This document shows, in pieces, positions 4,469-31,681 of a stretch of DNA of 31,681 nucleotides. The DNA is from Candidatus Iainarchaeum sp. (GTDB lineage: Archaea > Iainarchaeota > Iainarchaeia > Iainarchaeales > DTGL01). The position numbers were made by a program, and so were the translations under genes. The notes under the pieces are model-generated. The model saw only the letters and a list, made by a program, of their open reading frames with translations, did no database searches and had not been told where the DNA came from. The stretch's first letter is position 1. The number at the start of each line of letters is the position of its first letter. The stretch is from the NCBI GenBank assembly GCA_038736825.1, contig JAVYME010000008.1:1-31681 (forward strand), in the 5' to 3' direction.

Positions 4469-4515
4469 AGAAAAATATAATAACCTCCTTTACCTAATTC
4501 TACTGGTGTTTTTTT

Positions 4516-15585: not shown

Positions 15586-18500
15586 ATGGTTTCTGTGAAG
15601 AAAGTTCTTAAATTTTCCATATTCATTCTTTTGTTCTTTTCTTTGTTTTATTCGCCAGCCTCTTCTTTTCGCTGTGATGCAGGTTCTCTTGAAACCACTT
15701 GCATTCTTTCCACTTTTCAAAACCTAGACAACAATTTTTCAGTTAGCGGAACTGGAAATCTGGTGATAGAATCCACCGCTTCCCTGAACACAAATGGAAA
15801 CGACTTAGGCATTTCCATGACTGGTTTTATTGAAAACCGTGGAGACATAAACACTAACCTTAGTCCGGCAACAGTGCGTTTTAAAACAGGAACAGCAGAG
15901 CCCTTTACAGATATTGGCCTTGTCGGTGACTGGAACTTTAATGAAGGCTCTGGAAATATTGCTAGAGATGCGATTAATGGAAACAATGGAACTGTTTATG
16001 GTGCCACTTGGCAGCCTTCAAGTGTTCAATTGCCAAAAAAGAGCGGTTCTGCTATTGCATTTGACGGAAATGATGACTATATTGATATTGGTGATATAAG
16101 CTTACTTGAAAATTTTTCTTATTTTTCTCTTTCTGCATGGATTAAACCGAGCAAGCTCTCAACCCCACCTTTTTTTAGTGGTTTTTCTTATTTTCGTCCA
16201 GTTACTGTTTCGAATTCTGGTTCTGCTTTAACCGATTATCAAGTTTTAGTCACCATTAATACTTCTATTTTGGTTTCTGCTGGAAAAATGCGCTCTGATT
16301 GTGCAGACATGCGGTTCTCTGACAGCGACAATGCAACCTCTTTAAGTTATTGGCTTGAATCAGGTTGCAATTCCACTACAACCAAGGTTTGGGTGAAAAT
16401 CCCCTCAATTCCAAATGGAAACAAAACAATTTATTTTTATTATGGGAATTCTTCTGCAAGTTCTGGAAGCACCACTTCCACTTTGGAAGCATACCAAAAC
16501 ACTGGCGATCTGGATTCAGAAATAAAATCAGTTTATTACCCAAACAATAATTATGTTGGTGATCTGCATTGGACAATAGGTGGCTGGGGAGACTACTATT
16601 ATGCGCTTTTCAAAGTACCCAGTTCTCTAAGACCTTCATCAGTCACTTCTGCCAACATTAATACAGCCACTTTATATTCTTACGGGTTTTACCAGAATGA
16701 AAACAGTGGCAGCACTCTAACGCAAACAGTGAATCTTGCATATATCACTTCAAGTTGGAATCCCTCAACTGTCACTTGGAACACAAGACCATCACAGGGA
16801 AGTACTTTTTTCACTGGTTCAACAGTGCAATTAGGGCCTTCACAGTCAACTAGTGCAACTTGGCATACTTTTAATATTACAACTTGGGCAAAAGATTCCT
16901 CTGTTGGCTGGTTTGGAACAAACCATGGAATTTATGTGATTCCCAGCACTAATAGTGGGATGTATTATCGTGGCTATTCTGCTAATCATAATCCGCCATG
17001 GTATATAGTTATCACTTATGATACAAGCAAAAACATTATTATTGAGAAAGATTCGAATGGCTTTATTTGGAGAACCAGAAAGTATTCTTCTCCTGAACCA
17101 AGTGCTTCCATTGGAAGCGAGCAGACTACTGGAAGCGCTCAATTTGTTGTTGGAAAAGAAGGAGTTTACAAAATTGAAGCTTATGGCAACAATATAAGGT
17201 TTTTTACTGGCAATAATTGGTCTGGCGCAATTCTCACCTCTCAATCAACGCTTTCCACTAATGCATGGCAGCATATTGTGGCAACGTATGATGGTTCAAC
17301 CAAAAAATTGTATATTAATGGGGTTTTGGATTCAAATACTGTTTCTGTTTCTGGCAGTGTGGGGCAAAATTCCAGAAAATTCAGCATTGGTGCTTCTGAC
17401 ACTGGCACTGCTTGGGCAAATTATTTTAATGGCTTTATAGATGAAGTGCGCGTTTATAACCGTGCTTTGTCAATTGAAGAAGTGCAACAATTGTATAATT
17501 CTTCAAAGCCAGAGGATGCAGTATTGCACTTAAAGTTTGATGAAGGCACAGGGCTTATTGCAAGTGACTCTTCAGCTTATGGCAACCATGGACTGCTTTA
17601 CAATTTTCACGCTCCACGCTCTACGGGCTGGACAAGCGATGCAATTGACGGAAATGCTCTTGAATTTGACGGAGTTGATGATTATGTAAAAGTGTCCGAT
17701 AGCAACACTTTGAAAATTACAAGTAGTTTGACTGTTGAAGGTTGGTTTAAGCCAGATTCTTCAAAAAAAGCGCCAATAAAAGTTCTCTCAATATATCCTT
17801 GTAGTACTTGCAGAATAAATGACATTCTTGGCTCGTATGGTTTAGGATTGTTTTCTGTTGAATGTATGAGCTATACTGCCTTTAATTCAGGTGCGTATAA
17901 TTTGGCAAAGTATGATGTTGTAATTTTGGATGGGGCTGATTGTTGGGCTTCGGCAGCAAATTTGGATTTAGAGGAAAGAAATGCAATTGTTAGTTTTGTT
18001 TTGAATGGGGGCGCCTTTATTTCTACTCATGATACCATTTGCCAGAAAAGCTGGCCAGAATTCCATCAAATTTTAGGGTATGACTGTAATGGGGGTTATA
18101 CTGGGTGTTATCCGACTGGTTGTGCAGCTTTGACTCCAGTGAATAGGACTAGAGTGGGAGCAATAACAACTTACCCTTATGTTTTGCCTGCAAGCATATC
18201 GGTGCAAAACACCCACACTACAAATGGGCAAATTCCGAAAACTGCTATTAGATGGTATGAATTGACAGCTGATGATTCTGGTTATGATGTTTATTTGGCA
18301 ACCAACACTTATGGGGCTGGCTATGGTAGAACGGCAATGCTTCAATGGGGTCACGGAGCATATAATTGTGATTGCACGGGTGGTTCTCTGCCTGGCGCTG
18401 ATGAATCAAAATTGATAGTAAACACCTTGTATTGGGCAGCAATGCCAAGGACTATTTTCAAGCAAAACTCTTATGGTTTATATGTTGATTCAAATTTTGC

Positions 18501-21500
18501 AGTGGGATATATTAATGAAACTGTGGTTTCAAGCAATCTTTCTTCAACAACTTGGGCACATGTTGCTTTAACATATGATCTTTCAAATGTAAGCCTCTAT
18601 GTCAATGGTGTGCTTAAGTCAACCCAAACCCTAACAGACACCATTGCCCTCAATGCAAATGATTTGTTTGTTGGAAAAAATTTTTTTGGCAAAATTGATG
18701 ATGTCCGCGTTTACAATCGCGCTCTTTCACAGGCTGAAATTGCTGCAGATATGCGTGAAAATGCTTTGGGCAAAAAGATTTTGCACTTGAAAATGGATGA
18801 AGAAAATGCTTCAATAAGGGATTATTCTTCTTTCAATAATCATGGCTGGCTTGGTGGCAGCACCAGCCTATTAATGCGTTTTGATGAAAACTCTGGCTAT
18901 ATTGCACAAGACAGTTCCGGTTATGGAAATACTGGCACAATTTATGGCAATACAGTGCTTTTAATGAATTTTGACGACAACACTTCCAAAACAATTAAAG
19001 ACCTTTCTAGCAGAAACAACAATGGCATTTTGTATGGTTCAACTCGATTATTAATGAACATGGATGACAGTCGCAGTCAAACCATTGTTGATTCAACAGG
19101 TTATGCAAACAATGGAAACTATCGTGGCTCGAGTTTGTTTTTTGATGGACTAAGTGCATATGTGCAAAGGAGCAGCCCGTCTAATATTCCAACTGGCAAC
19201 ACGGTAACCGTGACTGTTTGGATCAAACCAGATTCCCTTCAAGGTGATGCCTCTTATAATGGTATTGTTTCATGGGGTCCTCGAACTGGCACTGGGACAA
19301 GTTTTTTGTTCAGTTTGCAGAACAATGGGCGTCTTAGTATGGGGACCTGGAACAACAATTTTGTTCCTTCTTCTGGTCCTACTGTTAGATGGAATGAATG
19401 GAATTTTGTGGCAGTTGTTTTGGACGGACAGAGCGTGACACTTTATGTTAATGGAGAATCTGTTAATGGAACTCTTTCCTCGACACCAGCCATTCAATCA
19501 GGGGTTTTGAATGTTGGTTCAACTGATAACCCTGGACGCTACTTTAAGGGAAACATTGATGAGTTAAGGATTTATAGTCGTGCTCTCAGTTCGACAGAAA
19601 TACTAGAGCAAATGCGTGGCATTTTTTCTAATAATGCTGGCTTGAGGGTTTTATGGTATTTCAAGGAAGGTTCTGGCACTAGTGTGGCAGATGACTCTGG
19701 AAATGGCAACACAGGAACTCTAATGGGCGGCGCTAGTTGGCAGGATGTAATTGTTAACTGGAACACTCCACACTGCTATGCGGATAGTGCAACATATAGT
19801 TCCGGTTCTTATAATTGTCCTTCTGGAACAACCACCTTTAAAGTCTATCATTATGTTGCAACAGAAGGTTGTTGTGATAGCTACTATATTTACTCGGGTG
19901 GAGGAGTGAAGTATTCTGGGGCGGGTTGCCTAACTGGTGGAACTTGTTCTTCTGGTAATTGCAATGCTCCATCTGGGGCGTGGTCTGCAGAGTATTCATA
20001 TAGTGGACCAGTCAGTTTTACTTTAACAACTGACAGCAGTATTGTCTATTATGGGGTAAGAGTTGATAAAATTTCTTGTTATGTTCCTGGTTCGCTTCCA
20101 ACTTGGAGCACTGAAAGCCCCGCAATATGGCAGTCAAGCAGTGCACTTGCAAATGAAGGCGGTTCGGCTTTAGCGTTTAATGGAATTGATACATATGTTG
20201 AAGTTCCACATACTGCTAGTTTATATTTGAACAATCAAGTCAGTGTCGAGGCATGGGTTAATCTTAAATCTTTCAACAGTTCTGATTGGGGGTCAATGAT
20301 TGTCAGCAAGTATGGCGGAAACTGGAAAGGTTACAATTTATATCTTGCCAATACCACTGGCAAACCAGCATTTAGTATTGCAACAACCACGCCATCCAAT
20401 GCAATTTATTCAGTAATCAGCGATGATGCGATAAGCCTTAATTCTTGGACTCACATTGTTGGGGTTTGGGATGGTTCAACAGCGCATGTTTATGTAAATG
20501 GCGTTTTGAAAAAATCAGTTTCTGCCCCTTATATTACACAGGACGCAACGCCGTTATACATTGGAAAAAATGCATGGTCAGGATATGGGTTTTTAAATGG
20601 CTTAATTGATGAAGTTGCGATTCATGGTCGCGCTTTAACTCAAGCCGAGATCTTGGATCACTATACTTCTAGGAAAGCAAAGTTTTCTGACTGGAATGCT
20701 GGAATGTCAGGCACAGCATTGCAGTTTGACGGTAATAGTTATGTTTACATCGGGGATAGTTCTAGCCTTGATATTACTAACAAGATTTCAATTGAAGCCT
20801 GGGTTTATGCTAACACTTATGGCAAGAGCAAGAGCACTATTCCTGGAAATTTGGAGTCAGCTAATATTTTGAGCAAGATGGACACTCCCACGAGTTGCAC
20901 TGGGCCCTTTTGGTGGGAGTACAGAAACAATGGTATTTTGGATGTCTATTTTAGAAACACCTCGGGCAGTATAATTTATGTTCGCACTAACTTGCCAATC
21001 CGCCAATGGTATCACATAGTTGCAACTTATGATTCCAGTACTGGAACAGCCAAGGTTTACTTGAATGGTGTTGATACAAATACTGTTGTTAGTTCTGGTT
21101 TTGGGCAATTAAGAAATGGCATGGAATTATTGCTTGGCACTGGAAAGGGCATCAATTATGGAAACTCTTTTGATGGCAAACTTGACGAGTTAGTAATTTA
21201 TTCCAAGGTTCTCTCTCAAGCAGAAATTTTTGAACACTATATTGCAGGCAAAGCAAGGCATGCAGACTGGGTTTCAGGAAAGAATGGTTCGGCATTGCAG
21301 TTTCCGGGTTTGGGGGAATATGTTGAGGTTGCCACAAGCACCTCTATAGCGCCTACTGAGCTGTCTTTATCTGCTTGGATTAATGTTACACAAACAGCTA
21401 GTTATAATATTTTATTTGCAAAAGATTATACTTCACATTCTTATCCTTACTATTCATACCAATTAAGGACTACCCCAAGTGGAATTGAATGGTGTTGTAT

Positions 21501-23064
21501 AAACCTTTGTCTCACTTACAGTGGAGGTGCGCTTCCAACTAATTCTTGGCAGCACATTGCTGCCACTTGCAAGAGCGGAGAGCAAAAAATTTACTTGAAT
21601 GGGGTTGCAGTTGCCAGCAGTTCAACAACTGGCTCTATTGTTTATTATAATACAAATCTTTTAATTGGAAAAGCAAGAAATTTTGATGGAAGATTTTTTG
21701 GAATAATGGATGAAGTTGCCATTTACTCTAAAATTCTTTCCGCCAACGAAATATCCAAATTATATGTTGAGGGAAGAGCCCGGCATTCTGATTTTAATTC
21801 AGGAATTTCTGGAAAAGCAATACAGTTTGATGGAGTGGATGATATTGTTTCAATTCCAGATTCTGATTCTTTGGACATGAAAAATGATAGTTTTTCCATT
21901 TTTGCTTGGGTGAAAAGAAACAAGTTTAATGATGAGCAGCAAATTGTAGCCAAATATGGCAGCATAGCATATAATGGTTATAGGTTTGAGTTTGGAGCGG
22001 ATAACAAGCTTGGCTTTTTTGCTGGCGATGGCGGAAGTTGGGACATTTACTTACAGTCTTCTTCAACTATTACTGATTCAGGCTGGCATCACGTTGGAGT
22101 GGTAATCAACAGAAGTAGCGTAGGCCAATTATATATTGATGGCAAGCCAAACGGCAATGCTGCAAGTGCCACTTCAATTGGAAACATAAACAATGCAGAT
22201 CCTGTTTACATCGGTTCTGCGCAATGGTCAACCAAGCGCTTTGGTGGCATCATTGATGATGTTCGCATTTACAATTATGCCAAATCTGCTCAAGAAATTG
22301 AAGCGGATTATAATTTTGGGGTTAGAGAACATAGTGCTCATATTCAAATCACTGACCAGAACTTGGTTGCTTTATGGCATTTGGATGGAAATGCTATGCA
22401 AACAACAGCCTTGGACTCAAAAGGAAGCAATCACGGAACGCTCGCCAACTTTGACTTTTGGCATGCTGATTCTGGCTGGGTTGAAGGCAAATTTGGAAGA
22501 GCTTTGAGATTTGATGGAAATAATGATTATATTGCAGTTAATGACTCTAGTTTGTGGGATTTTAGGGGAAAAAATGTTTCAATTGAGGTTTGGTTTAAAG
22601 CAAGTTCAGTGCAAATTGATCCATGGCCAACTCTTTTGGATCATTTTGTTGGTGGCACTCCTGGCGCGGGATGGCGCCTTGGTTTTGACTATAATAAAAC
22701 CAAAATAGTGTTTGCGCACCGACATGATGGCACTGGTGACCAAATTTACCTTGTTTCAACAAAAGATTATGCTGATAATCAATGGCATCACGTGGTTGTG
22801 GTTTTGGATAATGGAATTGCAAAACTTTATTTGGATGGTTTACTGGACAAAACAGACTCTTATGCCAATTTGAATGACCATGATGCGCCATTATATGTGG
22901 GAGGGCAAGGTATTAGCTATTCCTTTAATGGTAGCATTGATGAGATTGCAATTTATCACAGGGCATTATCTGAAACCGAAATAAAGGACCATTATTACTC
23001 TTTTGTGGACAAGGGAATGATTTATTCAGCTGGAACTATAAAGGGCTATGGTGAAAACCAATGA
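15586..23064 (+). CDS. Giant secreted surface protein (2,492 aa): signal peptide, 8 LamG/concanavalin-A-like lectin modules, with nested DUF2341 + DNRLRE/CBM96-like, GATase1/ThuA-like and Cys-rich CUB-like inserts
   Basis: Signal peptide MVSVKKVLKFSIFILLFFSLFYSPASS. A LamG closing block, [ILM]D[ED][VLI]x[IV][YH]xxxL[ST]xxE[IV], recurs eight times, ending at nt 17496, 18753, 19614, 20664, 21240, 21765, 22311 and 22995. The recurring lead block is F[DN]EG.G....D.S..GN.G.L, followed by AL.FDG.DDY. The DUF2341 block is FSYFRPVTVSN...VWVKIPSIP.GNKTIYFYYGN. Many N-x-S/T sequons are present. Confidence 0.85.
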   Translation: MVSVKKVLKFSIFILLFFSLFYSPASSFRCDAGSLETTCILSTFQNLDNNFSVSGTGNLVIESTASLNTNGNDLGISMTGFIENRGDINTNLSPATVRFKTGTAEPFTDIGLVGDWNFNEGSGNIARDAINGNNGTVYGATWQPSSVQLPKKSGSAIAFDGNDDYIDIGDISLLENFSYFSLSAWIKPSKLSTPPFFSGFSYFRPVTVSNSGSALTDYQVLVTINTSILVSAGKMRSDCADMRFSDSDNATSLSYWLESGCNSTTTKVWVKIPSIPNGNKTIYFYYGNSSASSGSTTSTLEAYQNTGDLDSEIKSVYYPNNNYVGDLHWTIGGWGDYYYALFKVPSSLRPSSVTSANINTATLYSYGFYQNENSGSTLTQTVNLAYITSSWNPSTVTWNTRPSQGSTFFTGSTVQLGPSQSTSATWHTFNITTWAKDSSVGWFGTNHGIYVIPSTNSGMYYRGYSANHNPPWYIVITYDTSKNIIIEKDSNGFIWRTRKYSSPEPSASIGSEQTTGSAQFVVGKEGVYKIEAYGNNIRFFTGNNWSGAILTSQSTLSTNAWQHIVATYDGSTKKLYINGVLDSNTVSVSGSVGQNSRKFSIGASDTGTAWANYFNGFIDEVRVYNRALSIEEVQQLYNSSKPEDAVLHLKFDEGTGLIASDSSAYGNHGLLYNFHAPRSTGWTSDAIDGNALEFDGVDDYVKVSDSNTLKITSSLTVEGWFKPDSSKKAPIKVLSIYPCSTCRINDILGSYGLGLFSVECMSYTAFNSGAYNLAKYDVVILDGADCWASAANLDLEERNAIVSFVLNGGAFISTHDTICQKSWPEFHQILGYDCNGGYTGCYPTGCAALTPVNRTRVGAITTYPYVLPASISVQNTHTTNGQIPKTAIRWYELTADDSGYDVYLATNTYGAGYGRTAMLQWGHGAYNCDCTGGSLPGADESKLIVNTLYWAAMPRTIFKQNSYGLYVDSNFAVGYINETVVSSNLSSTTWAHVALTYDLSNVSLYVNGVLKSTQTLTDTIALNANDLFVGKNFFGKIDDVRVYNRALSQAEIAADMRENALGKKILHLKMDEENASIRDYSSFNNHGWLGGSTSLLMRFDENSGYIAQDSSGYGNTGTIYGNTVLLMNFDDNTSKTIKDLSSRNNNGILYGSTRLLMNMDDSRSQTIVDSTGYANNGNYRGSSLFFDGLSAYVQRSSPSNIPTGNTVTVTVWIKPDSLQGDASYNGIVSWGPRTGTGTSFLFSLQNNGRLSMGTWNNNFVPSSGPTVRWNEWNFVAVVLDGQSVTLYVNGESVNGTLSSTPAIQSGVLNVGSTDNPGRYFKGNIDELRIYSRALSSTEILEQMRGIFSNNAGLRVLWYFKEGSGTSVADDSGNGNTGTLMGGASWQDVIVNWNTPHCYADSATYSSGSYNCPSGTTTFKVYHYVATEGCCDSYYIYSGGGVKYSGAGCLTGGTCSSGNCNAPSGAWSAEYSYSGPVSFTLTTDSSIVYYGVRVDKISCYVPGSLPTWSTESPAIWQSSSALANEGGSALAFNGIDTYVEVPHTASLYLNNQVSVEAWVNLKSFNSSDWGSMIVSKYGGNWKGYNLYLANTTGKPAFSIATTTPSNAIYSVISDDAISLNSWTHIVGVWDGSTAHVYVNGVLKKSVSAPYITQDATPLYIGKNAWSGYGFLNGLIDEVAIHGRALTQAEILDHYTSRKAKFSDWNAGMSGTALQFDGNSYVYIGDSSSLDITNKISIEAWVYANTYGKSKSTIPGNLESANILSKMDTPTSCTGPFWWEYRNNGILDVYFRNTSGSIIYVRTNLPIRQWYHIVATYDSSTGTAKVYLNGVDTNTVVSSGFGQLRNGMELLLGTGKGINYGNSFDGKLDELVIYSKVLSQAEIFEHYIAGKARHADWVSGKNGSALQFPGLGEYVEVATSTSIAPTELSLSAWINVTQTASYNILFAKDYTSHSYPYYSYQLRTTPSGIEWCCINLCLTYSGGALPTNSWQHIAATCKSGEQKIYLNGVAVASSSTTGSIVYYNTNLLIGKARNFDGRFFGIMDEVAIYSKILSANEISKLYVEGRARHSDFNSGISGKAIQFDGVDDIVSIPDSDSLDMKNDSFSIFAWVKRNKFNDEQQIVAKYGSIAYNGYRFEFGADNKLGFFAGDGGSWDIYLQSSSTITDSGWHHVGVVINRSSVGQLYIDGKPNGNAASATSIGNINNADPVYIGSAQWSTKRFGGIIDDVRIYNYAKSAQEIEADYNFGVREHSAHIQITDQNLVALWHLDGNAMQTTALDSKGSNHGTLANFDFWHADSGWVEGKFGRALRFDGNNDYIAVNDSSLWDFRGKNVSIEVWFKASSVQIDPWPTLLDHFVGGTPGAGWRLGFDYNKTKIVFAHRHDGTGDQIYLVSTKDYADNQWHHVVVVLDNGIAKLYLDGLLDKTDSYANLNDHDAPLYVGGQGISYSFNGSIDEIAIYHRALSETEIKDHYYSFVDKGMIYSAGTIKGYGENQ
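18856..19125 (+). repeat. Three in-frame tandem 90-nt (30-aa) units inside the giant gene
   Basis: Unit 1 is GSTSLLMRFDENSGYIAQDSSGYGNTGTIY. Unit 2 is GNTVLLMNFDDNTSKTIKDLSSRNNNGILY. Unit 3 is GSTRLLMNMDDSRSQTIVDSTGYANNGNYR. Each is exactly 30 codons (18856-18945, 18946-19035, 19036-19125). They are diverged copies of the LamG lead motif. Confidence 0.8.
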
Positions 23065-24269
23065 AGGGAATGAGAAAAAAGCACAAGTGGTTTTTATTTT
23101 TGCTTTTCATAGTTTCCGTTTTTGCCCAGGCTTTTGCCACTTTTGGTTCAAATGCAACAATTTTTAACCAGGGAAGCTCTCCAGTGACTGTACAAATTTC
23201 TTGCACTTCAGGTCAGGGCTATACTTGTTTTGCCATCAAATATAGCGTTGATGGCAATTCTTGGCAAAACTATTATGGTGCTGATTTGAATGTTGTTTTG
23301 ACTGAGGATGGCAATCACATAATTAGGTATTATGCAATAGGCCGCGCTTGTTATAGTGAAAAATGCACGCATGTTTTTGAGCCAATGAAATATGTGTGGG
23401 CATATGTAGTGACTAGAGTATCTCCAACAATTATACTTAATTCCCCTATTGGGGGGGAATTGTGGCGCGGCATTCATGCTATTGATTTCAATGTAAGACA
23501 ACCCCAAAACAATGAATTACACCTTGCAATTTATTATTCTTCTGACAGAAACAAATTCCAAAATGTTATAGTAAGCGATTTGAATTTGAACAATTATCCT
23601 AATATTGCAGCCTTAAATTGTGATGGTTCTAACTGGTCAAACAGCACCAGGTGCACTTATGACTGGAATACTGCAATCATTCCAGACGGAAACTGGTACA
23701 TTGACTTGAACATATGGGAGAGAAAATATTTTTTGAGTGATTCAAATTCAACCTTTTCGCATTTAATGATAGACAACAATCCGCCTTTTACAAACCTTGT
23801 TTCTCCAACTGGTTGGCAAACTCAAGATTTTAATGTTGTGCTTTCTTGTTCTGATGCCAGTGGTTCTGGGTGTGCTTCTACAAGTTATGGGTTGAATTTT
23901 GGGCCTTGGGAAACGTACGGTCAAGGTGTGTCAGAATGGTGGAATTCTTCTTGGCAGTACAGGCGCAAAATATTTTTTGACAATTCCAATCAACCGCTAA
24001 AAACGAATCATTCTGTTTTGCTCAGGCTTAATTCTGGCAATTTTGATTTTTCAAAAGTGCAATCTGCTGGTCAAGATTTAAGGTTTAGGGATGTCAATCA
24101 ACAAATTGCTATTGAATTCTTTTTCGACTATTTTAATGCAGCATTGCAGAGTGCAATTGTTTGGATTAAAGTGCCACAAATTGATGCAAATTCTAAATCG
24201 GACTATGTTTGGATGTATTATGGCAATCCTTCAGCAACTGATGCTCAGTCAACCAATTGGTTTGGCTAG
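23061..24269 (+). CDS. Secreted protein with Ig-like/OmpL47-type beta domains and a C-terminal DUF2341 module
   Basis: The start overlaps the stop of the giant gene (ATGA). Signal peptide MKGMRKKHKWFLFLLFIVSVFAQAFA. Chitobiase-C/Ig-like block ISCTSGQGYTCFAIKYSVDGNSWQNY. OmpL47-like block PPFTNLVSPTGWQTQDFNVVLSCSDASGSGCASTSY. DUF2341 block WQYRRKIFFDNSNQ...IVWIKVPQIDANSKSDYVWMYYGN. Confidence 0.7.
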   Translation: MKGMRKKHKWFLFLLFIVSVFAQAFATFGSNATIFNQGSSPVTVQISCTSGQGYTCFAIKYSVDGNSWQNYYGADLNVVLTEDGNHIIRYYAIGRACYSEKCTHVFEPMKYVWAYVVTRVSPTIILNSPIGGELWRGIHAIDFNVRQPQNNELHLAIYYSSDRNKFQNVIVSDLNLNNYPNIAALNCDGSNWSNSTRCTYDWNTAIIPDGNWYIDLNIWERKYFLSDSNSTFSHLMIDNNPPFTNLVSPTGWQTQDFNVVLSCSDASGSGCASTSYGLNFGPWETYGQGVSEWWNSSWQYRRKIFFDNSNQPLKTNHSVLLRLNSGNFDFSKVQSAGQDLRFRDVNQQIAIEFFFDYFNAALQSAIVWIKVPQIDANSKSDYVWMYYGNPSATDAQSTNWFG

Positions 24270-24694
24270 TGTTTTAACTTTATTTCTTTTGAGGGGTTGT
24301 TCATTTCGCTTTCAAAGCATTTATCACAACACCATTTTGCTTTCAGGTTTTTTGAGGAATCGATTTTTTTGCATTCGGTTAACTGTACTGAGGCTGCTTT
24401 TTGTGGTTCCAGTGGTTCGTTGATGGTGGCAATGTCTGTTCCTTGAATTGTTGGAATGGTTATTTGAACTGATTGGATTGTTTTTTCTCCACCATTAAAG
24501 AATGGAACAGCCAGTCTTTCATTAATGCATTCGCTTTCCCCGTATTCCAGCAAGCAGCCATTTCTCATGGCTTCACTTAGGTTTTCGGCAGGCGCATTAG
24601 CAAGATTTGTTATGTAGAAAAAAATCCCATATGCTGCCATAAAGAGAATGAATCCCGCCGGCAACAGCCACTTGCTTTCAATTTTTTTTTCCAT
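24266..24694 (-). CDS. Small N-terminally anchored or exported protein with 6 Cys, unknown function
   Basis: MEKKIESKWLLPAGFILFMAAYGIFFYI hydrophobic anchor, then a soluble domain with Cys pairs (GC..EC, EC, WCCDKC). Its stop overlaps the stop of the convergent 23061-24269 gene within CTAG. It is divergent from the radical-SAM operon. Confidence 0.55.
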   Translation of the reverse strand: MEKKIESKWLLPAGFILFMAAYGIFFYITNLANAPAENLSEAMRNGCLLEYGESECINERLAVPFFNGGEKTIQSVQITIPTIQGTDIATINEPLEPQKAASVQLTECKKIDSSKNLKAKWCCDKCFESEMNNPSKEIKLKH

Positions 24695-24748: not shown

Positions 24749-25684
24749 ATGCCAGAGCGCTTGGACTTAAAACTTGGCTTTTCCTGCAATAACAATTGTC
24801 TTTCCTGTCCCCAAGCACATAGGCGACACTTGGGGGATTTAACAACTGCACAAGCCAAAAAATTCCTGCTCGCAGGCTTAAGAGATGGTGCCAAAGAGCT
24901 TGTGCTTACAGGTGGCGAACCAACCATTAGAGCTGATTTAATTGAACTTGTTGAATTTGCAAGAAAAAAAGGCTTTGAAAGAGTGCAATTGCAAACCAAT
25001 GCAAGAATGCTTTCCTATAAATCGCTTGCATTAAAACTTGTTGAAGCAGGAATAACAGAATTTTGTGTTGGCTTGCATTCCGACAAAAAAGAAACACAAG
25101 AATTTCTCACGCGCTCTCCAGGTTCTTTCACTCAAACAATTCAAGGAATAAAAAATTTGGTTGAACTAAACCAATACGTTACAATTAACTCTGTTATTCA
25201 CAAGCTTGACTTTGAAAGGCTTCCTTTGCGAGCAAAAATGGCTGTAGAGTTGGGCGTGCAACAATTCCAGCTTGCCTTCATTCACTGTGCTGGCAATGCC
25301 TTCGAAAACATGGATTTGTTGTGCCCAAAAAAATCCAAAGTAATGCTTTTCGTTCACAAAGCCCTTGAAATTGCCGCCAATGCCGGCTTAACAGCAATGG
25401 TTGAAGCCTACCCATTTTGCTTTATGCAAGGCTTTGAAAAACACTGCTCTGAACTATACATGCCCTCAGCTGAAATAAGAGACGCAGAAGGCCTAGTCAA
25501 AGACTTTGACAGAGTGCGCAAAGAAAGCGGAAAATTAAAAGGTCCAAACTGTTCAAAATGCAAGTTTTTTTTGGTGTGTGAAGGTCCATGGAAAGAATAC
25601 CCGCAAAAGTTTGGCTGGACTGAATTTAAACCAGTGAAAGGCAAAAAGATTGCTAGTGCCAGAGAATTTTTGGGTGAAAAATAA
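24749..25684 (+). CDS. Radical SAM enzyme, ~300-aa class with a C-terminal Cys-cluster (twitch/partial-SPASM-like), paralogue A
   Basis: CX3CX2C motif SCNNNCLSC near the N-terminus, GGEPTIRADLIELVEFARKKGF, and QTNARML. C-terminal Cys are at PFCFMQGFEKHC and GPNCSKCKFFLVCEG. Confidence 0.85.
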   Translation: MPERLDLKLGFSCNNNCLSCPQAHRRHLGDLTTAQAKKFLLAGLRDGAKELVLTGGEPTIRADLIELVEFARKKGFERVQLQTNARMLSYKSLALKLVEAGITEFCVGLHSDKKETQEFLTRSPGSFTQTIQGIKNLVELNQYVTINSVIHKLDFERLPLRAKMAVELGVQQFQLAFIHCAGNAFENMDLLCPKKSKVMLFVHKALEIAANAGLTAMVEAYPFCFMQGFEKHCSELYMPSAEIRDAEGLVKDFDRVRKESGKLKGPNCSKCKFFLVCEGPWKEYPQKFGWTEFKPVKGKKIASAREFLGEK

Positions 25685-26287
25685 ATGGCAAAATTTAAAA
25701 AAAAGCATTGGCTTGCTTTTATGGTTTTATTTTCATTAATTTTTATTATTTTCTTGGTTTTGTTTTTAAAAGAACTGTTGTTCATTGATTCAAATCCAGT
25801 TATTAAAAAAGAAGCCGCGATTATGCCAATAAAAAGCGAATCAATGGAAAAAGATTTTTTGGGAGTTAGCGTTTTCAATGCTTTATCAAAAAACAATATT
25901 AAAAACTGCGGGGATTTTAACGAATGCAGGCGTCTTTTCCTTTTGGCTGAAAAAGAATGCACTGGCAACATTAACGAGAAAATCTTTTGCTTGGCAGTAA
26001 TTGACGAAAATTTGAATTATTGCAAGTGGATTGATTTGAAATGGTATGCTATTACTTGCACTGCTTTTTTGGAAAAAAACATTGGCAAGTGCATGGAAAT
26101 AAGAGATGCCTTTGAGATAGCTCCTTGTATTAAGGACTTTGTTTTAAACAATGAGGACGCTAACTGTGGTGTGCTTTCAAGCGACTGGGAAAAAGCCTGT
26201 GAAGCCTTCAAAAACAAAAGCAGGGCAAAATGTGACATGATTGATAGTGGCACCATCAAGAAGGCATGCATTACATTTTTGGAATAA
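25685..26287 (+). CDS. Membrane-anchored or exported protein with 12 periodically spaced cysteines (candidate maturation substrate)
   Basis: The ATG immediately follows the stop of the preceding gene (TAAATG). The N-terminus is MAKFKKKHWLAFMVLFSLIFIIFLVLFL. Cys lie at residues 75, 81, 92, 102, 113, 125, 136, 148, 161, 172, 183 and 195. No catalytic motif recognised. Confidence 0.65.
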   Translation: MAKFKKKHWLAFMVLFSLIFIIFLVLFLKELLFIDSNPVIKKEAAIMPIKSESMEKDFLGVSVFNALSKNNIKNCGDFNECRRLFLLAEKECTGNINEKIFCLAVIDENLNYCKWIDLKWYAITCTAFLEKNIGKCMEIRDAFEIAPCIKDFVLNNEDANCGVLSSDWEKACEAFKNKSRAKCDMIDSGTIKKACITFLE

Positions 26288-26293
26288 GGGTGT

Positions 26294-27190
26294 TTGCATT
26301 TGCAAGAGCACTTAAATTTTTACACTTTAGTTTTGGGGCATCACTGCAACAATAATTGCATTTTTTGCACTCGTCCGAGTGATCCTTCTATAAAAAGTGT
26401 TTGGGGTTTTGTTGAAGAAAAATCCTTTGCCACGGTTTTTCGAGAAATTGCGAGTGCAAGGAAAAGGTTTGACTCAATAGTGCTTTCTGGCGGCGAACCA
26501 ACAACAAGAAGGGATTTTTTCAAAATCCTGCAAGCATGCTGTTCCCTTGGTTTTGAAAGAATTTCAGTGCAATCTAATGCAAGAAAATTTTCTTCAATGG
26601 GTTTTGCAGAAAAAACCTTGTCAATTTTGGGTTCTCGAAGTGACTTTTATATTTCATTTCACGCTAAAAGGGAAAAATTGTTCAACAAGCTAAGGGGCAC
26701 AAACTCATTTAAAGAGTCCTTGAGTGGAATAAAAAACCTGTTATTGCTGAAAGCACCAGTGCGCATCAACATTGTTGTTATGAAGCCAAATTATCGCGAT
26801 TTGCCAGAAACAGTGCGCTTTTTGGACTCTTTGGGGGTAAAGGCAGTGGAGTTTTCTTTTGTGCACCCCAATGGCAGAGCATTTGCCAACAGGGAAACAG
26901 TGGTTCCCCAAATAGAAAAAGTAATTCCCTTTGTTGAAAGAGCAGGCGAGTTTTTAGAGAAAAAACAAGTATTTTTTTCCTTGAACGATTTTCCATTATG
27001 TTCGCTGAATAAATGCAGGAAAAATGCTTCTGAACTTTTTTTGAATGAAAAACTGGCATTTCAGAGCCCAAAAATAAGTTTTAAGGCAAAAGAGTGCCAA
27101 AAATGCCTTTATTTTGACAAATGTCCGGGCATTTGGGCTAATTATCTAAAAATTTTCAAATTTCATTTTTCTCCAATAACCAAACTTTGA
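26294..27190 (+). CDS. Radical SAM enzyme, ~300-aa class, paralogue B (most divergent)
   Basis: HHCNNNCIFC (CX3CX2C), SGGEPTTRRDF and QSNARKF. C-terminal Cys are at PLCSLNKC and ECQKCLYFDKCPG. There is no ATG near the 5' end, so a TTG start at 26294 is assumed and the exact start is uncertain. Confidence 0.8.
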   Translation: MHLQEHLNFYTLVLGHHCNNNCIFCTRPSDPSIKSVWGFVEEKSFATVFREIASARKRFDSIVLSGGEPTTRRDFFKILQACCSLGFERISVQSNARKFSSMGFAEKTLSILGSRSDFYISFHAKREKLFNKLRGTNSFKESLSGIKNLLLLKAPVRINIVVMKPNYRDLPETVRFLDSLGVKAVEFSFVHPNGRAFANRETVVPQIEKVIPFVERAGEFLEKKQVFFSLNDFPLCSLNKCRKNASELFLNEKLAFQSPKISFKAKECQKCLYFDKCPGIWANYLKIFKFHFSPITKL

Positions 27191-27241: not shown

Positions 27242-28717
27242 GTGTTTTTTTTGGCTAAAAGCTTTTTTGGCTCAACTGCAACTGAAGAGCAATATGTTGC
27301 AAATTTTTATCACGTAAAAAAATTTGGCGAAGATGCATTCCTTGTAACCACTGAGCATGGCTCTTGGGCTCTTCTTTCAAAGAAAGAATTCGAATTGCTA
27401 AGGCTTGGCAGAGTGCAAGCAAACCCAGCCTTGTTTGAAGAACTAAAAAAACAAGGCATTATTTTGACAACTGAAAATATTGAAAATGTCATATCTGATT
27501 ACAGGCAAAAAAAGTCTTTTTTGTTTAGACCGCCATCGCTTCACATAATCACGCCCACCCTGCGGTGCAACCTCAAATGCATTTACTGCCATTCCAGGGT
27601 GTGCGCTGACCAAGAAAAAGGCTATGACATGGACAAAGAAACAGCAAAAAAAACAGTGGATTTCATAATGCAAACTCCCTTGAATGAATTGAAAATAGAG
27701 TTTCAAGGTGGGGATTTTTTGTTGAATTTTGAAATAACAGAATTCATTATAGATTATGCTTTGGAAAAAGCCAAAGAAAAAGGAAAAAAAGTCAATTTTG
27801 CAATGGTTTCAAACCTTACTTTAATGAATGAAAAAATCCTTGAAAGCTTGAGCAAGAGAAAGATTATGGGTTTGGCAACATCGCTTGACGGTCCCAAAAA
27901 AGTGCACGACCTCAACCGAAGGCATTTGGGAGGAAAAGGCTCTTATGAAGATACTGTTTACTGGATCAAGAGGATTAAAAGCGAGTGGAAGTACAAGTTC
28001 AACCTTAACGCCCTTTGCACAGTCACAAGGCATTCTTTTGGTCATGAAAAAGAGATAGTGGACGAATACATTAGCTTGGGCTTTGCGGGTGTTTGGATGC
28101 GGCCTCTTAACAATATCGGTTTTGCCGCAGATGCTTGGCAGAAAATTGGTTATTCTCCTAGAGAGTTTTTTTCCTTTTGGAAAAAATCCTTTGAATACAT
28201 TCTTGAAAAAAACCGTGCTGGGGAAAACCTGATAGACTATTTTGCCCTGATTTTCTTGAAAAAAATACTTCAAAAAGAAGACCCGCACATGGTGGACATA
28301 ATGTCGCCTTGTGGTGCTGGAATAAGCCAGTTATTGTATAAGTACAATGGTGATATTCACACTTGCGATGAAGGCAAAATTTTTTCTGAATTCAAGCTTG
28401 GCAATGTAAGAGAGTCCAAATACGAGGACATTTTCAGAAACGAAACCCTTATTCCAATGATTGACATTTCCAGCAAAAAAAACTATCTTTGCGATAACTG
28501 TGCTTGGGACCCATATTGTGGGGTTTGCCCGATTTATTCTTATGCAGCACAGGGTTCAATTGTTTCTATTCTCCCGCTTGATGACCGATGCAAGGTTTAT
28601 GGAAAAATCATAGAAGAAATTTTTAGAAAAATCCTTTTTTCTGAAGAGGATCGCCAGGTAATGCTTGGCTGGCTTGAAAGCGAAAGGCTTTTCAAAAAGG
28701 AGCCGGAAAGTGCTTGA
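27242..28717 (+). CDS. Radical SAM/SPASM-domain maturase with a ~100-aa N-terminal extension (anSME/HxsB-like architecture)
   Basis: LRCNLKCIYCH (CX3CX2C) is preceded by FYHVKKFGEDAFLVTTEHGSWALLSKKEFELLRLG...LFEELKKQGIIL...SLHIITPT. The SPASM Cys pattern is PCGAGISQLLYKYNGDIHTC ... CDNCAWDPYCGVC ... DDRC. A GTG start is assumed. Confidence 0.85.
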   Translation: MFFLAKSFFGSTATEEQYVANFYHVKKFGEDAFLVTTEHGSWALLSKKEFELLRLGRVQANPALFEELKKQGIILTTENIENVISDYRQKKSFLFRPPSLHIITPTLRCNLKCIYCHSRVCADQEKGYDMDKETAKKTVDFIMQTPLNELKIEFQGGDFLLNFEITEFIIDYALEKAKEKGKKVNFAMVSNLTLMNEKILESLSKRKIMGLATSLDGPKKVHDLNRRHLGGKGSYEDTVYWIKRIKSEWKYKFNLNALCTVTRHSFGHEKEIVDEYISLGFAGVWMRPLNNIGFAADAWQKIGYSPREFFSFWKKSFEYILEKNRAGENLIDYFALIFLKKILQKEDPHMVDIMSPCGAGISQLLYKYNGDIHTCDEGKIFSEFKLGNVRESKYEDIFRNETLIPMIDISSKKNYLCDNCAWDPYCGVCPIYSYAAQGSIVSILPLDDRCKVYGKIIEEIFRKILFSEEDRQVMLGWLESERLFKKEPESA

Positions 28718-28719
28718 AA

Positions 28720-29766
28720 ATGCTCGCTTTTTTCCTTTTTCCTGCTTTCCTGATTGGCTTGATTGCATCAATAGAGGACTTCAAGCAGGGCATTATAAGA
28801 AATCTTTATGTTTTAACCCTTTTGATTTTGGGAATCACATTCCAGTTTTTGTCAGGGGCTGATTTTTTTATTCTAGCTCCAGTTCTGGCTTCCGCTTTTG
28901 TGGTTTCCTTTGCTTTTTGGCTTTCTGGATTATGGCCTGCAGGTGATGCAAAGCTTTTCTGGGCATATTTTTTCTTTTTTCCTCAAACCTTTTTTTTGGA
29001 AAAAGAGCTGGTTTTGGCTTTCCTTTCCAACATTTTTGTTCCAATTTTTTTCTTTATGTTTTTTGTAGTATTATGCAAGAGCCGCCTTGGAGTGATCAAA
29101 GAAGCCTTAAAGTATTCTCTTGACCCTTACCGGCTTTTCATGCTTGCAGTAATGCTTTTGGGTTTTGTCTGGATTGTCATGCTGCCCTTAGCGTTTTTCA
29201 GGATTGAAACTGGCTTGCTTGGCACGCTTGCAGTATTGCTTTTAGCCTTCGAGTTGCTTAAACGGTTTTGGACATTTAAAACCGAGACCTTTTTCATTCT
29301 CTGCGCTTTTGCCAGAGTCTTGCTTTTTCCAGCAGAAATTTATTCAATTCCATTTGCCATAAATTTTTTGAAAACACTGGCGGTTTTTGTCTTTTTCAGG
29401 TTTTTCATTTTGTATTTGGCTTTCAAGCTTTACGCTTCAAAAGTTCTCATAAAAAACCTCAAGGAGGGGATGATTCCAGCCGAAGGAATCAAAAAACAAG
29501 GCAAAAAATTTGTAAAAGAGTCTTTTTTGAATTCTGGCTTTATTTCATTCGTTTCAAGTGAAAAAAAGCGCTTTGAGCATAGCAAAAACTGCCTTTCAAA
29601 AAAAGACATTGCAAAACTGCAACGCCTTGAAAAGCGTGGCTTGCTGGAATTCGATTCGCTTTTGGTGCACCAAACACAACCTTTCGGGTTCTTCATTTTA
29701 TTAGGTTTCCTGTTAACTCTGCTTTTTCAGGGCAAGAATTTTTTGCTTGCAAACCCGCTTTTTTAA
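28720..29766 (+). CDS. Second A24-family aspartyl membrane peptidase paralogue, embedded in the radical-SAM operon
   Basis: Asp1 context is ASIEDFKQGIIRN and Asp2 context is LWPAGDAKLFWAY, a GxGD variant. The C-terminal architecture parallels the 1589-2413 protein (LKEGMIPAEGI ... LLVHQTQPFGFFILLGFLL versus LEEDEIIAKEFL ... PVYRSLPPFAPFLLFGVIV). The ATG at 28720 lies 2 nt after the upstream stop. The ORF-track TTG at 28714 is the alternative start. Confidence 0.7.
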   Translation: MLAFFLFPAFLIGLIASIEDFKQGIIRNLYVLTLLILGITFQFLSGADFFILAPVLASAFVVSFAFWLSGLWPAGDAKLFWAYFFFFPQTFFLEKELVLAFLSNIFVPIFFFMFFVVLCKSRLGVIKEALKYSLDPYRLFMLAVMLLGFVWIVMLPLAFFRIETGLLGTLAVLLLAFELLKRFWTFKTETFFILCAFARVLLFPAEIYSIPFAINFLKTLAVFVFFRFFILYLAFKLYASKVLIKNLKEGMIPAEGIKKQGKKFVKESFLNSGFISFVSSEKKRFEHSKNCLSKKDIAKLQRLEKRGLLEFDSLLVHQTQPFGFFILLGFLLTLLFQGKNFLLANPLF

Positions 29767-29792: not shown

Positions 29793-30713
29793 ATGATCAA
29801 AGTATTGAAGACCGGGATTTTGCTGGGCTATCGTTGCAACAACAACTGCCGGTTTTGCTATTGTGCTGACAAAAAAGGCGTTATTGCCCCCATGAAAACA
29901 GAAGAGGTGAAAAAACAGATTTTGGCTGGAAGAAACCGCGGCTCCAATTTTGTGGATTTCTTGGGAGGCGAACCCACGCTGAGAGCAGATTTACCAGAAC
30001 TAGTTGAATTTGCAAAAAGAGTTGGCTTTGAACAAATTGGCATTACAACCAATGGCAGGGTTCTTTCCAAAAAAGATTACACCAAACAACTTCTTGATTC
30101 TGGCTTAAACCACGTGATTTTTTCACTTCACGGTCATAATGCCGAGCTTCATGATTATTTAACGCGGTCACCAAATTCTTTTGTGCAAGCAACAAAAGGC
30201 ATCAAAAACGTGAAGGAATTGAACCCAAAAGCCTATGTTTGCATTAACACTGTTTTGTTGAAGCAAAACCTAAAAGTTTTGCCGGAAATCGTAAGGCTTG
30301 CCTTTGAACTCAAAGCCAATGGCATGGAATTGATTTTTCCCCATCCAAGAGGCAATGCTTGGCATAATTTTGAAGAAATGGTGCCAAACCTTGAAGAATT
30401 AATCGGGCCATTGCATGAAGCCCTGCATTTAGGGCATTCGCTTGGCATCAAGCACTGTTTTGCAAGATATGTGCCTTTTTGCTATATGTACGGCGACCTG
30501 GCATTCATAAGCGAATTTTTTTCCAAGGATTTTTTTGCAGAGCACCATATTGCTCCAGAATACCAAGACCTAGAAGTTGCAAAAAACCGTGCCGCTTATG
30601 GGCGAGTGAAAGGACCACAGTGCTCTGCATGCAAATACTTCAAGGAATGCGAAGGCATATTCAAAGAATACGCGCTCAAAAGGGGCTTTTCAGAGCTAGT
30701 GCCTGTGCCCTAA
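29793..30713 (+). CDS. Radical SAM enzyme, ~300-aa class, paralogue C
   Basis: YRCNNNCRFC, GGEPTLRADLPELVEFAKRVGF, TTNGRVL and YLTRSPNSFVQATKGIKNV (compare FLTRSPGSFTQTIQGIKNL in paralogue A). C-terminal Cys are at VPFCYMYG and GPQCSACKYFKECEG. Confidence 0.85.
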   Translation: MIKVLKTGILLGYRCNNNCRFCYCADKKGVIAPMKTEEVKKQILAGRNRGSNFVDFLGGEPTLRADLPELVEFAKRVGFEQIGITTNGRVLSKKDYTKQLLDSGLNHVIFSLHGHNAELHDYLTRSPNSFVQATKGIKNVKELNPKAYVCINTVLLKQNLKVLPEIVRLAFELKANGMELIFPHPRGNAWHNFEEMVPNLEELIGPLHEALHLGHSLGIKHCFARYVPFCYMYGDLAFISEFFSKDFFAEHHIAPEYQDLEVAKNRAAYGRVKGPQCSACKYFKECEGIFKEYALKRGFSELVPVP

Positions 30714-31681
30714 TTCTGATTTCTTGAAGTTTATTGTAGAGCACTCGCCTATTTCAAGAAAAACTGCTTTTTTTACTTCGTACTTTTCTGCTTCCAAGGC
30801 AAGTTCTTTTCGAGCTTTTTTTATTGCGTCTTTTTTGGAAAAAGCTGAAATATGGCCGAGCACTTCATAGTGTTCTTGGCTTTTATAAACCGCCAAAAAA
30901 TCTTTAATCCTGCTTTTGATTTTTTCCTTTTTTTCTGGCAGTCTTTCAAACAAGCGCCAGCATTGTGGGTCTGGCGCAAAAGGTGTTCCAAAGTATCCAA
31001 AGGAAAGGCATTTTGCGCCACCCTTACACTCTTGAAAGAAAAAGCATTTTTTGCAAATTTCTGAAGCATTTTGATGGCTGCGGAGCTTTTTTAGTTCCAT
31101 TGAATTGTTGAATATTTCCAAAAGGCTTTTTTTCAATACATTGCCTGCAAGAATTGGCAGTTTCCTGCAAGGATAAATGTTGCCGTTTGGAAGCACTGTT
31201 AGGGAGCCAAAACCAGCAGAGCAACCAACTGCCATATAATGTGGGTTTTGTGAAAGAATGCCATCCTCGCAACCCAAAAAGATTGCCATTTGCCCTTTGC
31301 CTCTTTTTTGTGATTCAGTGAAAACAAATTCGTAGAGCTTTTTTGTTTCTAAGGGATCAAGCATTTTTTCTTTGATTTGCAGGCCTCTGCCTGCAGGCAC
31401 AAACCTTCTCACACCCAATGCTTTTGCTCCAATGGAATCACAAAATTTAACCATTTCTGGAACATCACGCCAATTAGCCCTATTCACAGTCATTGAAACA
31501 ATGAATGGAATTCCTTCTTTTGCCAGAAAATCCATCCCCTGAACCGCTTTGCTGAAAGAGCCTTCTCCCCTCAAAAAATCATTGGCTTTTTGCATTCCAT
31601 CAAGGCTCACTTGAACATAATCCGGCTTTATTTTTTTCAGCTGTTCAGCCTCTTTTTTTCCAATCAATGTTCCGTTTGTTG
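30696..31681 (-). CDS. Radical SAM/SPASM-domain protein, 5'-truncated by the window edge, with a ~70-aa helical C-terminal tail
   Basis: The frame stays open to the window end (..TNGTLIGKKEAEQLKKIKPDYVQVSLDG, a typical rSAM core block), so the CX3CX2C region lies outside the window. The SPASM pattern is GCSAGFGSLTVLPNGNIYPC ... CKKCFFFQECKGGAKC ... DPQC. Its 3' end overlaps the convergent rSAM-C gene by 18 nt. Confidence 0.8.
   Translation of the reverse strand, partial: TNGTLIGKKEAEQLKKIKPDYVQVSLDGMQKANDFLRGEGSFSKAVQGMDFLAKEGIPFIVSMTVNRANWRDVPEMVKFCDSIGAKALGVRRFVPAGRGLQIKEKMLDPLETKKLYEFVFTESQKRGKGQMAIFLGCEDGILSQNPHYMAVGCSAGFGSLTVLPNGNIYPCRKLPILAGNVLKKSLLEIFNNSMELKKLRSHQNASEICKKCFFFQECKGGAKCLSFGYFGTPFAPDPQCWRLFERLPEKKEKIKSRIKDFLAVYKSQEHYEVLGHISAFSKKDAIKKARKELALEAEKYEVKKAVFLEIGECSTINFKKSELGHRH

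Follow-up and report, generated by a model that had tools for sequence, protein, structure and literature searches.

His-Xaa-Ser (Hxs) systems, whose protein families were reportedly defined by Haft and Basu in 2011, remained orphan bioinformatic predictions for 15 years, and only in 2026 was the bacterial version shown to be an antiphage barrier. This bacterial HXS system comprises the four genes HxsD-HxsB-HxsC-HxsA, acts against phages and is found almost exclusively in Pseudomonadota (99.7%; Li et al. 2026, PMC13128918). Its HxsA protein carries a Sec-type signal and a peptidoglycan-binding domain, and it is N-terminally processed as part of maturation, not by simple removal of a signal peptide; no protease was identified for this step, the system has no peptidase gene, and neither archaea nor peptidases are mentioned in the study (PMC13128918). 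Here, we describe an A24-like aspartyl membrane peptidase of 348 amino acids (aa), called A24L, which is encoded within an Hxs-type cluster of radical S-adenosylmethionine (rSAM) genes in the archaeon Candidatus Iainarchaeum sp. (assembly GCA_038736825.1). The gene lies at 28720-29766 (+) of contig JAVYME010000008.1; this whole contig of 31,681 nucleotides (nt) is the stretch that was analysed, referred to below as the window. The assignment draws on Pfam, profile searches, hhalign and an AlphaFold2 (AF2) model. On balance, we consider it probable, as a joint statement, that the gene specifies an A24 (GxGD-type) aspartyl membrane peptidase that is active and belongs to a distinct subfamily, and that this subfamily is dedicated to Hxs systems.

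The closest enzymes in the literature are FlaK (3s0x), PibD and EppA, with which the new family shares a homologous N-terminal catalytic module and two Asp residues at FlaK-equivalent positions. With the canonical archaeal A24 peptidase it further has in common an Arc_PepC-like soluble domain and a terminal PFA helix, and with EppA the status of an extra paralogue that is apparently dedicated to one class of substrates. However, its members are about 350 aa long, have an insertion of some 55 aa with transmembrane (TM) helices, and show W[STP]A[GA]D[AG]KLF in place of the GxGD motif. They also stand among rSAM and Hxs genes, not beside pilins or archaellins, and the candidate cleavage site has a polar stretch before the hydrophobic helix, unlike the sites of FlaK, PibD and EppA. 

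Compared with bacterial HXS, the likeness lies in an HxsB that passes the same NCBIfam model and in related archaeal loci with HxsD and HxS repeat proteins. In contrast to the bacterial system, the archaeal clusters contain an A24-type peptidase, their HxsA has a Lys-rich leader and a membrane helix, HxsD is duplicated (HxsD and an HxsD-like protein), and several small, distantly related rSAM paralogues take the place of the canonical HxsC. NCBIfam also holds models for variant Hxs proteins, namely HxsA4 (NF038313), HxsA3 (NF038309), HxsC4 (NF038332) and HxsD_rel (NF038315). The HxS proteins of related loci pass HxsA4 and their small partners pass HxsD_rel, so a variant Hxs system had already been recognised by curators. 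Yet these models include none for the peptidase, and the small rSAM enzymes of the window score 116-160 bits against an HxsC4 cut-off of 500. While Hxs systems and A24 peptidases themselves are already known, their association looks unreported: the link is in none of the searchable papers, and NCBIfam has no model for it. We know of no A24 enzyme that acts as a leader peptidase of rSAM-modified or other ribosomally synthesised and post-translationally modified peptides (RiPPs), and a literature search found none.

The open reading frame (ORF) of the peptidase may start at 28720 (ATG) or 28714 (TTG), and its homologues begin at the ATG position. The stop codon of HxsB (TGA, 28715-28717) precedes this ATG by 2 nt, and the junction sequence thus bears out the spacing behind a SPASM maturase given in an earlier reading of the window, made from the sequence only. 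The motifs named in that sequence-only reading are likewise present: IEDF and WPAGDAK in the peptidase under study (copy 2), YTDL and GGGDVK in a second, canonical A24 gene of the window (copy 1; 1589-2413, +). The first catalytic Asp, D20 of IEDF (28777-28779, +), sits at the predicted cytoplasmic end of the first TM helix and aligns with FlaK QDF and with copy 1 YTDL. The second, D76 (28945-28947, +), corresponds to the A24 Asp in the loop ahead of TM4, lies in WPAGDAKLF, a variant of the GxGD motif, and aligns with FlaK GGGDGK and with copy 1 GGGDVK. Further downstream comes the family-specific insertion (about residues 160-215; 29197-29364, +), which appears as a gap against the copy 1 family both in hhalign and in the family alignment and adds TM helices that the canonical paralogue does not have; AF2 places helices in and around it at residues 166-182, 186-202 and 210-237. 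A soluble Arc_PepC-like domain of beta strands and helices follows (29404-29646, +), as seen with PF06819, hhalign and the AF2 model, and then the last TM helix, PFGFF…. This model (pLDDT 89.7, pTM 0.79) describes a polytopic membrane protein: it has some ten TM helices, and residues 239-317 form a soluble beta/alpha domain. Next to D20 come basic residues (FKQGIIRN), and the soluble domain, being Lys-rich, is probably on the cytoplasmic side; both Asp residues are predicted, by the positive-inside rule only, to lie at the cytoplasmic face at the ends of helices.

How secure is the assignment to A24? As a single sequence, copy 2 scores just below the Pfam gathering thresholds, with 25.1 bits against 26.5 for Peptidase_A24 (PF01478; E 2.4e-5) and 20.2 bits against 23.4 for Arc_PepC (PF06819; E 7e-4), and NCBIfam, which has no model for the peptidase family, gave no match for it or for five homologues. 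Many of its relatives carry a precomputed PF01478 match and several a PF06819 match; their source names are 'prepilin peptidase' or absent. A profile of 36 sequences (35 relatives plus copy 1 of the window) searched against the PDB found FlaK (3s0x) as its sole match, at E 5.9e-6, with both Asp on the catalytic Asp residues of FlaK. Compared directly with copy 1 by BLASTP, copy 2 is 30% identical over 176 aa (E 6e-6), and the Asp residues align; hhalign joins the copy 2 family to the copy 1 family with a probability of 98.7% (E 2.2e-16) over 249 columns that take in the catalytic N terminus, the soluble C-terminal domain and the last helix (PFA). This upholds the claim of two full-length A24 paralogues with a common architecture, including the soluble insert and the final PF(A/G) helix, and the proposed check of the catalytic Asp residues, against FlaK and the canonical paralogue, came out in favour of the assignment.

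Conservation within the family points the same way. Among 262 distinct family sequences, the D20 column holds 250 Asp and 12 gaps, all 258 sequences that cover the D76 column have Asp there, and both residues are kept in 244 of 244 full-length relatives, from which we argue for a working protease. The Gly adjoining the second Asp is present in 226 of the 258 and replaced by Ala in the other 32, while the Lys two residues past this Asp is invariant among about 250 diverged sequences. 

The relation of the two copies was assessed by profile-profile comparison and by their homologue lists, which do not overlap: copy 1, which reaches 51.5 bits on PF01478, has 76 relatives, none of them shared with copy 2. 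For both copies, most relatives are labelled Diapherotrites, and the two types also occur together on one 203-kb contig of another genome (P0014, P0215). Copy 1 is presumed to be the housekeeping prepilin/preflagellin peptidase. It starts 4 nt after srp54 (214-1584), which suggests that srp54 and copy 1 are co-transcribed.

The rSAM-rich cluster, which runs from 24.7 kb up to the contig end, is assigned to the Hxs systems, and the SPASM enzyme directly upstream of the peptidase (27242-28717, +) is HxsB, with 424.7 bits on TIGR03978 (cut-off 370) and the Pfam domains Radical_SAM and SPASM. The same association recurs in a large family. A profile search of 1.84 billion representatives (50% identity level) returned 520 matches at E <= 1e-30, and a scan of GTDB species representatives yielded 146 relatives. 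The relatives come from Iainarchaeia, Aenigmatarchaeota, Nanohaloarchaeota, Woesearchaeota, Undinarchaeota, Micrarchaeota and Nanoarchaeota, and the linkage of peptidase, HxsD and HxsA extends over at least seven DPANN lineages. Genes were counted over 87 loci from six-frame ORFs with jackhmmer, and the linkage figures refer to the 31 loci flanked by 5 kb or more on each side: rSAM genes are present in 30, HxsD in 26, and an HxsA-like His-Xaa-Ser repeat gene of the HxsA4 type also in 26. Pilus ATPase, platform protein, pilin and archaellum families were found in none of the nine neighbourhoods with Pfam lists. The family is therefore tied to rSAM genes (30/31) and not to pilus or archaellum genes (0/9), the opposite of the outcome that the sequence-only reading had named as refuting its proposal.

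Six loci, representing four distinct relatives, were obtained by protein look-up. In them the peptidase has as neighbours an HxsD recognised by Pfam, a further ORF of about 78 aa that is HxsD-like, and several rSAM genes, and each of the six also encodes a small protein in which HxS repeats stand in tandem. The most frequent order runs peptidase, HxsD, HxsD-like, HxsB-like rSAM and HxsA, with gaps below 100 bp. Iainarchaeia, including the window, have an expanded version in which HxsB directly precedes the peptidase; in the Iainarchaeia relatives, HxsA and HxsD lie 5-9.5 kb downstream of the peptidase on the opposite strand. The NCBIfam cut-offs passed in related loci are those of HxsB (about 430 bits), HxsD, HxsD_rel and HxsA4; HxsD and HxsD_rel were passed in loci L077, L005 and L001, and HxsA4 by three tested leader-bearing HxS proteins (70-76 bits against 55). 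Taken together, we find it reasonably probable that the peptidase subfamily is a standing component of HxsA4-type Hxs maturation systems in DPANN archaea and in some bins labelled as Candidate Phyla Radiation (CPR) or other bacteria. Three bacterial-labelled bins hold a peptidase with both Asp intact together with HxsD, HxsB and HxsA-like genes: Poribacteria, on the complete 6.8-Mb chromosome OZ242335 (L084, 7536-11666), Omnitrophota (L077, 4651-11128) and Paceibacterota (L085, 5053-12461). This suggests that the module crosses the domain boundary, or was transferred. In the closest Iainarchaeum relative of the window (L023, 65% identity in the best segment), the peptidase frame is split into the overlapping ORFs 4195-4773 and 4619-5026, which may reflect a frameshift, a pseudogene or an assembly error.

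What could such a peptidase cleave? The likely substrate, judged from sequence features, is the HxsA4-type precursor. The HxsA-like proteins begin with the pattern [LI]PK[IL]KKK[IL]SSF[LIV]xxEE-G-[KS]-I-S-K-[HQ]-S-[ML]-L-x-L-G-[AT]-F-[LI]-G, followed by a hydrophobic stretch, and their core opens with [ST]HxHHxSH and continues as HxS repeats. The leader together with its first Gly is the most strongly conserved block of the precursor: this Gly is invariant (47/47), a Lys stands at +4 in 44 of 47, Glu is found at -2 and Ile at +2. A second Gly, present in 45 of 47, follows 11 residues after the first and lies inside the hydrophobic segment. In the closest relatives of the window, from Iainarchaeia, the site reads …EE[RK]-G-[SAG]-I-S-K…, of which [RK]-G-[SAG]-I resembles what we take to be the consensus of class III signal cleavage sites in PibD and FlaK substrates.

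Searching in the reverse direction, from leader to peptidase, leads to the same association. A metagenome scan by the leader alone retrieved 80 loci; it used 10 closer sequences and is therefore biased toward Woesearchaeota-type leaders. In the 36 of these that extend 3 kb or more upstream, the peptidase is present in 22, HxsD in 30 and an rSAM gene in 33, and in the 22 the peptidase lies on the same strand at a stereotyped distance of about 2.1 kb upstream of the leader gene. Among the 18 loci that have 5 kb or more on both sides, 13 contain the peptidase. Likewise, three look-ups that started from leader-bearing 'hypothetical' peptides all led to HxsD, an HxsB-like rSAM gene and the peptidase (3/3), whose ORFs of 348-365 aa score 272-358 bits on the family hidden Markov model.

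With both Asp residues kept and the gene linked to rSAM and not pilus genes, the reading with the best support is a leader or signal peptidase dedicated to this rSAM system, which agrees with the role proposed in the sequence-only reading. The firm basis is homology, the conservation of the catalytic residues, and a gene linkage to HxsA4-type Hxs systems that holds in both directions; that the peptidase cleaves at all, its substrate, the cleavage site and the order of steps are all inferred from there, and from this genomic context the peptidase is probably the Hxs system's leader peptidase. In the mechanism we propose, the HxsA4-type precursor would consist of a leader, taken to be cytoplasmic because it is Lys-rich, a hydrophobic helix and the HxS core. 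HxsB, HxsD, the HxsD-like proteins and the HxsC-like rSAM enzymes would modify the core in the cytoplasm, after which the helix would insert into the membrane. The peptidase, with its Asp residues at the cytoplasmic face as in FlaK and PibD, would then cut off the leader at or near the invariant Gly in the style of class III signals, leaving the modified His-rich core on the cell surface, anchored by its helix. Since rSAM enzymes must act in the cytoplasm, modification probably takes place before or with membrane insertion, and leader removal would come last.

Several observations weigh against this reading. The strict G-x-G-D motif is not matched, as copy 2 of the window has P-A-G-D and the first Gly is P, S or T throughout the family; we take PAGD as a variant of the motif and not as grounds for exclusion because the homology is otherwise clear. 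A Foldseek search of the AF2 model against the PDB reached a best E of 0.5 and did not recover FlaK, a miss that we do not count against homology because the method is limited on helical membrane proteins. In the precursor, the Gly stands about seven polar residues (…ISKHK) ahead of the helix, which is not textbook class III, and in most lineages acidic residues precede the Gly. It could also be HxsD or the rSAM enzymes, and not the peptidase, that recognise the leader and keep it conserved, and roughly a third of the leader-bearing loci with enough sequence have no peptidase within reach. Finally, the window itself yielded neither partner: a six-frame scan for HxS repeats and the leader motif, together with jackhmmer, found no HxsA, and Pfam, six-frame ORF and jackhmmer searches found no HxsD. 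We attribute the absence of both genes to the contig end, 1.9 kb downstream of the peptidase ORF, and expect them to lie beyond it, so that the window would hold the enzyme half of the cluster only. A match to G[SA]ISK at 26110-26124 (-) is a chance match within another ORF.

The alternative that survives best, although we regard it as unlikely, is that the enzyme works as an intramembrane protease, like signal-peptide peptidase or presenilin, with which A24 enzymes share the GxGD protease class. It would then cut within the helix at the second Gly (…L-G-[AT]-F-[LI]-G…) and release the His-rich core. The near invariance of this Gly inside the hydrophobic segment (45/47) and the extra TM helices relative to canonical A24 enzymes would suit such a cut. 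However, conservation in the precursor is strongest in the leader and first Gly, and to our knowledge the characterised A24 enzymes (PilD, PibD, FlaK and EppA) all cut at the cytoplasmic face, N-terminal of the helix.

Less probable still is that the peptidase processes the N-anchored proteins encoded nearby, which the sequence-only reading had proposed as its substrates: the DUF2341 protein at 23061-24269, the protein p142 (24266-24694, -) and the protein p200 (25685-26287, +). All have short basic N termini followed by hydrophobic segments, and p142 is kept in 12 related loci. Yet these N termini resemble Sec signals or signal anchors, and at their boundaries (KW|LLPAGF in the window, different in L001 and L003) there is no conserved Gly or Ala site. 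Their distribution is also narrow (2 loci for p200, 3 for the DUF2341 protein and 12 for p142), against the at least seven DPANN lineages over which peptidase, HxsD and HxsA are linked. We consider the three products poor candidates; they do not carry the conserved leader.

A second general prepilin or preflagellin peptidase of the EppA kind, serving pilins elsewhere in the genome and standing among rSAM genes by accident, has precedent in the substrate-specialised A24 paralogues of archaea and in the 'prepilin peptidase' annotation of relatives, yet it is very improbable given a Hxs synteny that holds in both search directions over phylum-level distances, the lack of pilus and archaellum families in the nine Pfam-listed neighbourhoods (0/9) and a canonical A24 copy in the same genome. 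We give equally little credence to a loss of protease activity, with the protein now serving the precursor as a scaffold or receptor in the membrane or as a conduit for export: the P, S or T at the first Gly of GxGD, the Ala before the Asp in 32 of 258 sequences and the score of the window protein just below the Pfam cut-off would fit it, but both Asp residues and the Lys at +2 of the second are invariant over about 250 diverged sequences, as expected under selection on catalysis.

Turning back to the peptidase as a leader peptidase of Hxs systems, the leader itself occurs more widely than HxsA. Other proteins that begin with it have Cys/Gly-rich cores or (CHSS)n repeats, or are Hint/intein-like proteins of 230-435 aa, in which the Hint domain comes after a single T-H-x-H-H-x-S-H motif; three of four loci of this last type have the peptidase and HxsD upstream. 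ORFs with such variable cargo occur in L099, L113, L117, L128 (10001-10213), L139, L150, L158 (9977-10834), L032 (from 5482) and L024 (13193-13588). This suggests that the leader is a signal of general use in sorting or processing, whose cargo varies. 

Pairs of a dedicated signal and protease are known from archaeosortase and PGF-CTERM, exosortase and PEP-CTERM, and rhombosortase and GlyGly-CTERM, and RiPP leader peptidases include the C39 domains of peptidase-containing ATP-binding transporters (PCATs). The likeness to the sorting pairs lies in a short conserved signal on many cargos with a membrane protease encoded beside some of them, whereas the protease is of another class and the signal is N-terminal, not C-terminal. 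As a tentative extension, in which our confidence falls somewhat short of even, we propose that the peptidase and the leader (PKIKKK…EEGxISK plus helix) form a previously unrecognised sorting and maturation pathway of DPANN archaea and some CPR- or other bacterial-labelled bins, with a prepilin-type GxGD protease as leader peptidase for rSAM-modified surface cargos of the HxS-repeat, Cys-rich and Hint-domain kinds. If true, this would be an archaeal counterpart of the bacterial HXS antiphage barrier, and it would identify the kind of protease behind N-terminal processing in Hxs systems. 

A large unannotated family is thus linked genetically to a variant Hxs system of ultra-small archaea and some bacterial bins, and it supplies a specific candidate for the processing protease, whose proposed substrate and site can be tested. 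It would extend the roles of A24 enzymes past pili and archaella to the maturation of proteins by rSAM enzymes, and the common leader may mark out a group of surface proteins in DPANN organisms, whose surface biology and virus defence are little known.

The remaining genes of the cluster are largely further rSAM genes. Three encode small rSAM proteins, all with best matches to HxsC4 and HxsC but at most 160 bits on HxsC4 (NF038332, cut-off 500) and 113 on HxsC (TIGR03977, cut-off 268). By these profile scores we class the three as distant paralogues of HxsC/HxsC4, below the level of HxsC proper. The first, at 24749-25684 (+), reaches 139 bits on HxsC4 and 102 on HxsC, the second, at 26294-27190 (+), 116 and 113 bits, and the third, at 29793-30713 (+) just after the peptidase, 160 bits on HxsC4; according to the gene maps, orthologues of this third gene follow the peptidase in L001, L012 and L013. 

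The last gene, a convergent radical SAM/SPASM gene (30696-31681, -; Pfam SPASM 45.7 bits), is cut by the contig end: its frame, listed as 30696-31667, is open to the last base, the N-terminal part with CxxxCxxC is missing, and the Radical_SAM match begins at profile position 91. We considered whether it is the orthologue of the 613-651-aa rSAM protein encoded beside HxsA in relatives and rejected this at 24% identity (E 8e-4); the distance to the missing genes is therefore not predictable.

The protein p200 (200 aa, Cys-rich) is encoded between the first two of the small rSAM genes. It matches no family and is narrowly distributed, its only homologue being found in L023. The 142-aa p142, which contains Cys and has no Pfam or NCBIfam family, has its homologues in Iainarchaeia-type clusters (for example L001 12050-12505 and L003 6059-6508), and its recurrence there marks it as a predicted conserved accessory component of the expanded Iainarchaeia-type cluster. 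Its conserved Cys motifs are …CLLEYGE.EC… and …KWCC..C…. Another family, 'p294' (about 300 aa, …GYP.CC..FF…), is absent from the window and recurs in the rSAM clusters of other loci (L001 18246-19130, L005 7790-8764 and five copies in L025); in Pfam it has only a weak DUF483 match, in L002.

Beyond the cluster, the window carries archaeal housekeeping genes for SRP54, RNase P Rpr2, thymidylate kinase, a DnaG-type Toprim protein, Hjc and PTH2, and the block of PTH2 with genes for 605, 540 and 200 aa is syntenic with one contig of Candidatus Iainarchaeum (Diapherotrites, DPANN). A scan of the window for bacterial-type promoters and terminators gave counts no higher than in shuffled sequence, and PADLOC returned only generic matches of rSAM genes to viperin. 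Upstream of the cluster, 15586-23064 encodes a secreted protein of 2492 aa with eight LamG-type (Laminin_G_3) domains and DUF2341, and the 402-aa DUF2341 protein at 23061-24269 overlaps this gene by 4 nt; DUF2341 proteins also stand beside the cluster in L023 and L012. 

Among the HxS proteins of related loci, many short HxsA4-type members share a conserved C-terminal feature in that they end in an aromatic residue right after the last repeat, as in …SHSSY, …SHGSY and …SHGQW; examples are L002 14438-14704, L051 6603-6824, L058 13083-13301, L053 3387-3692, L055 3281-3589 and L167 6001-6210.

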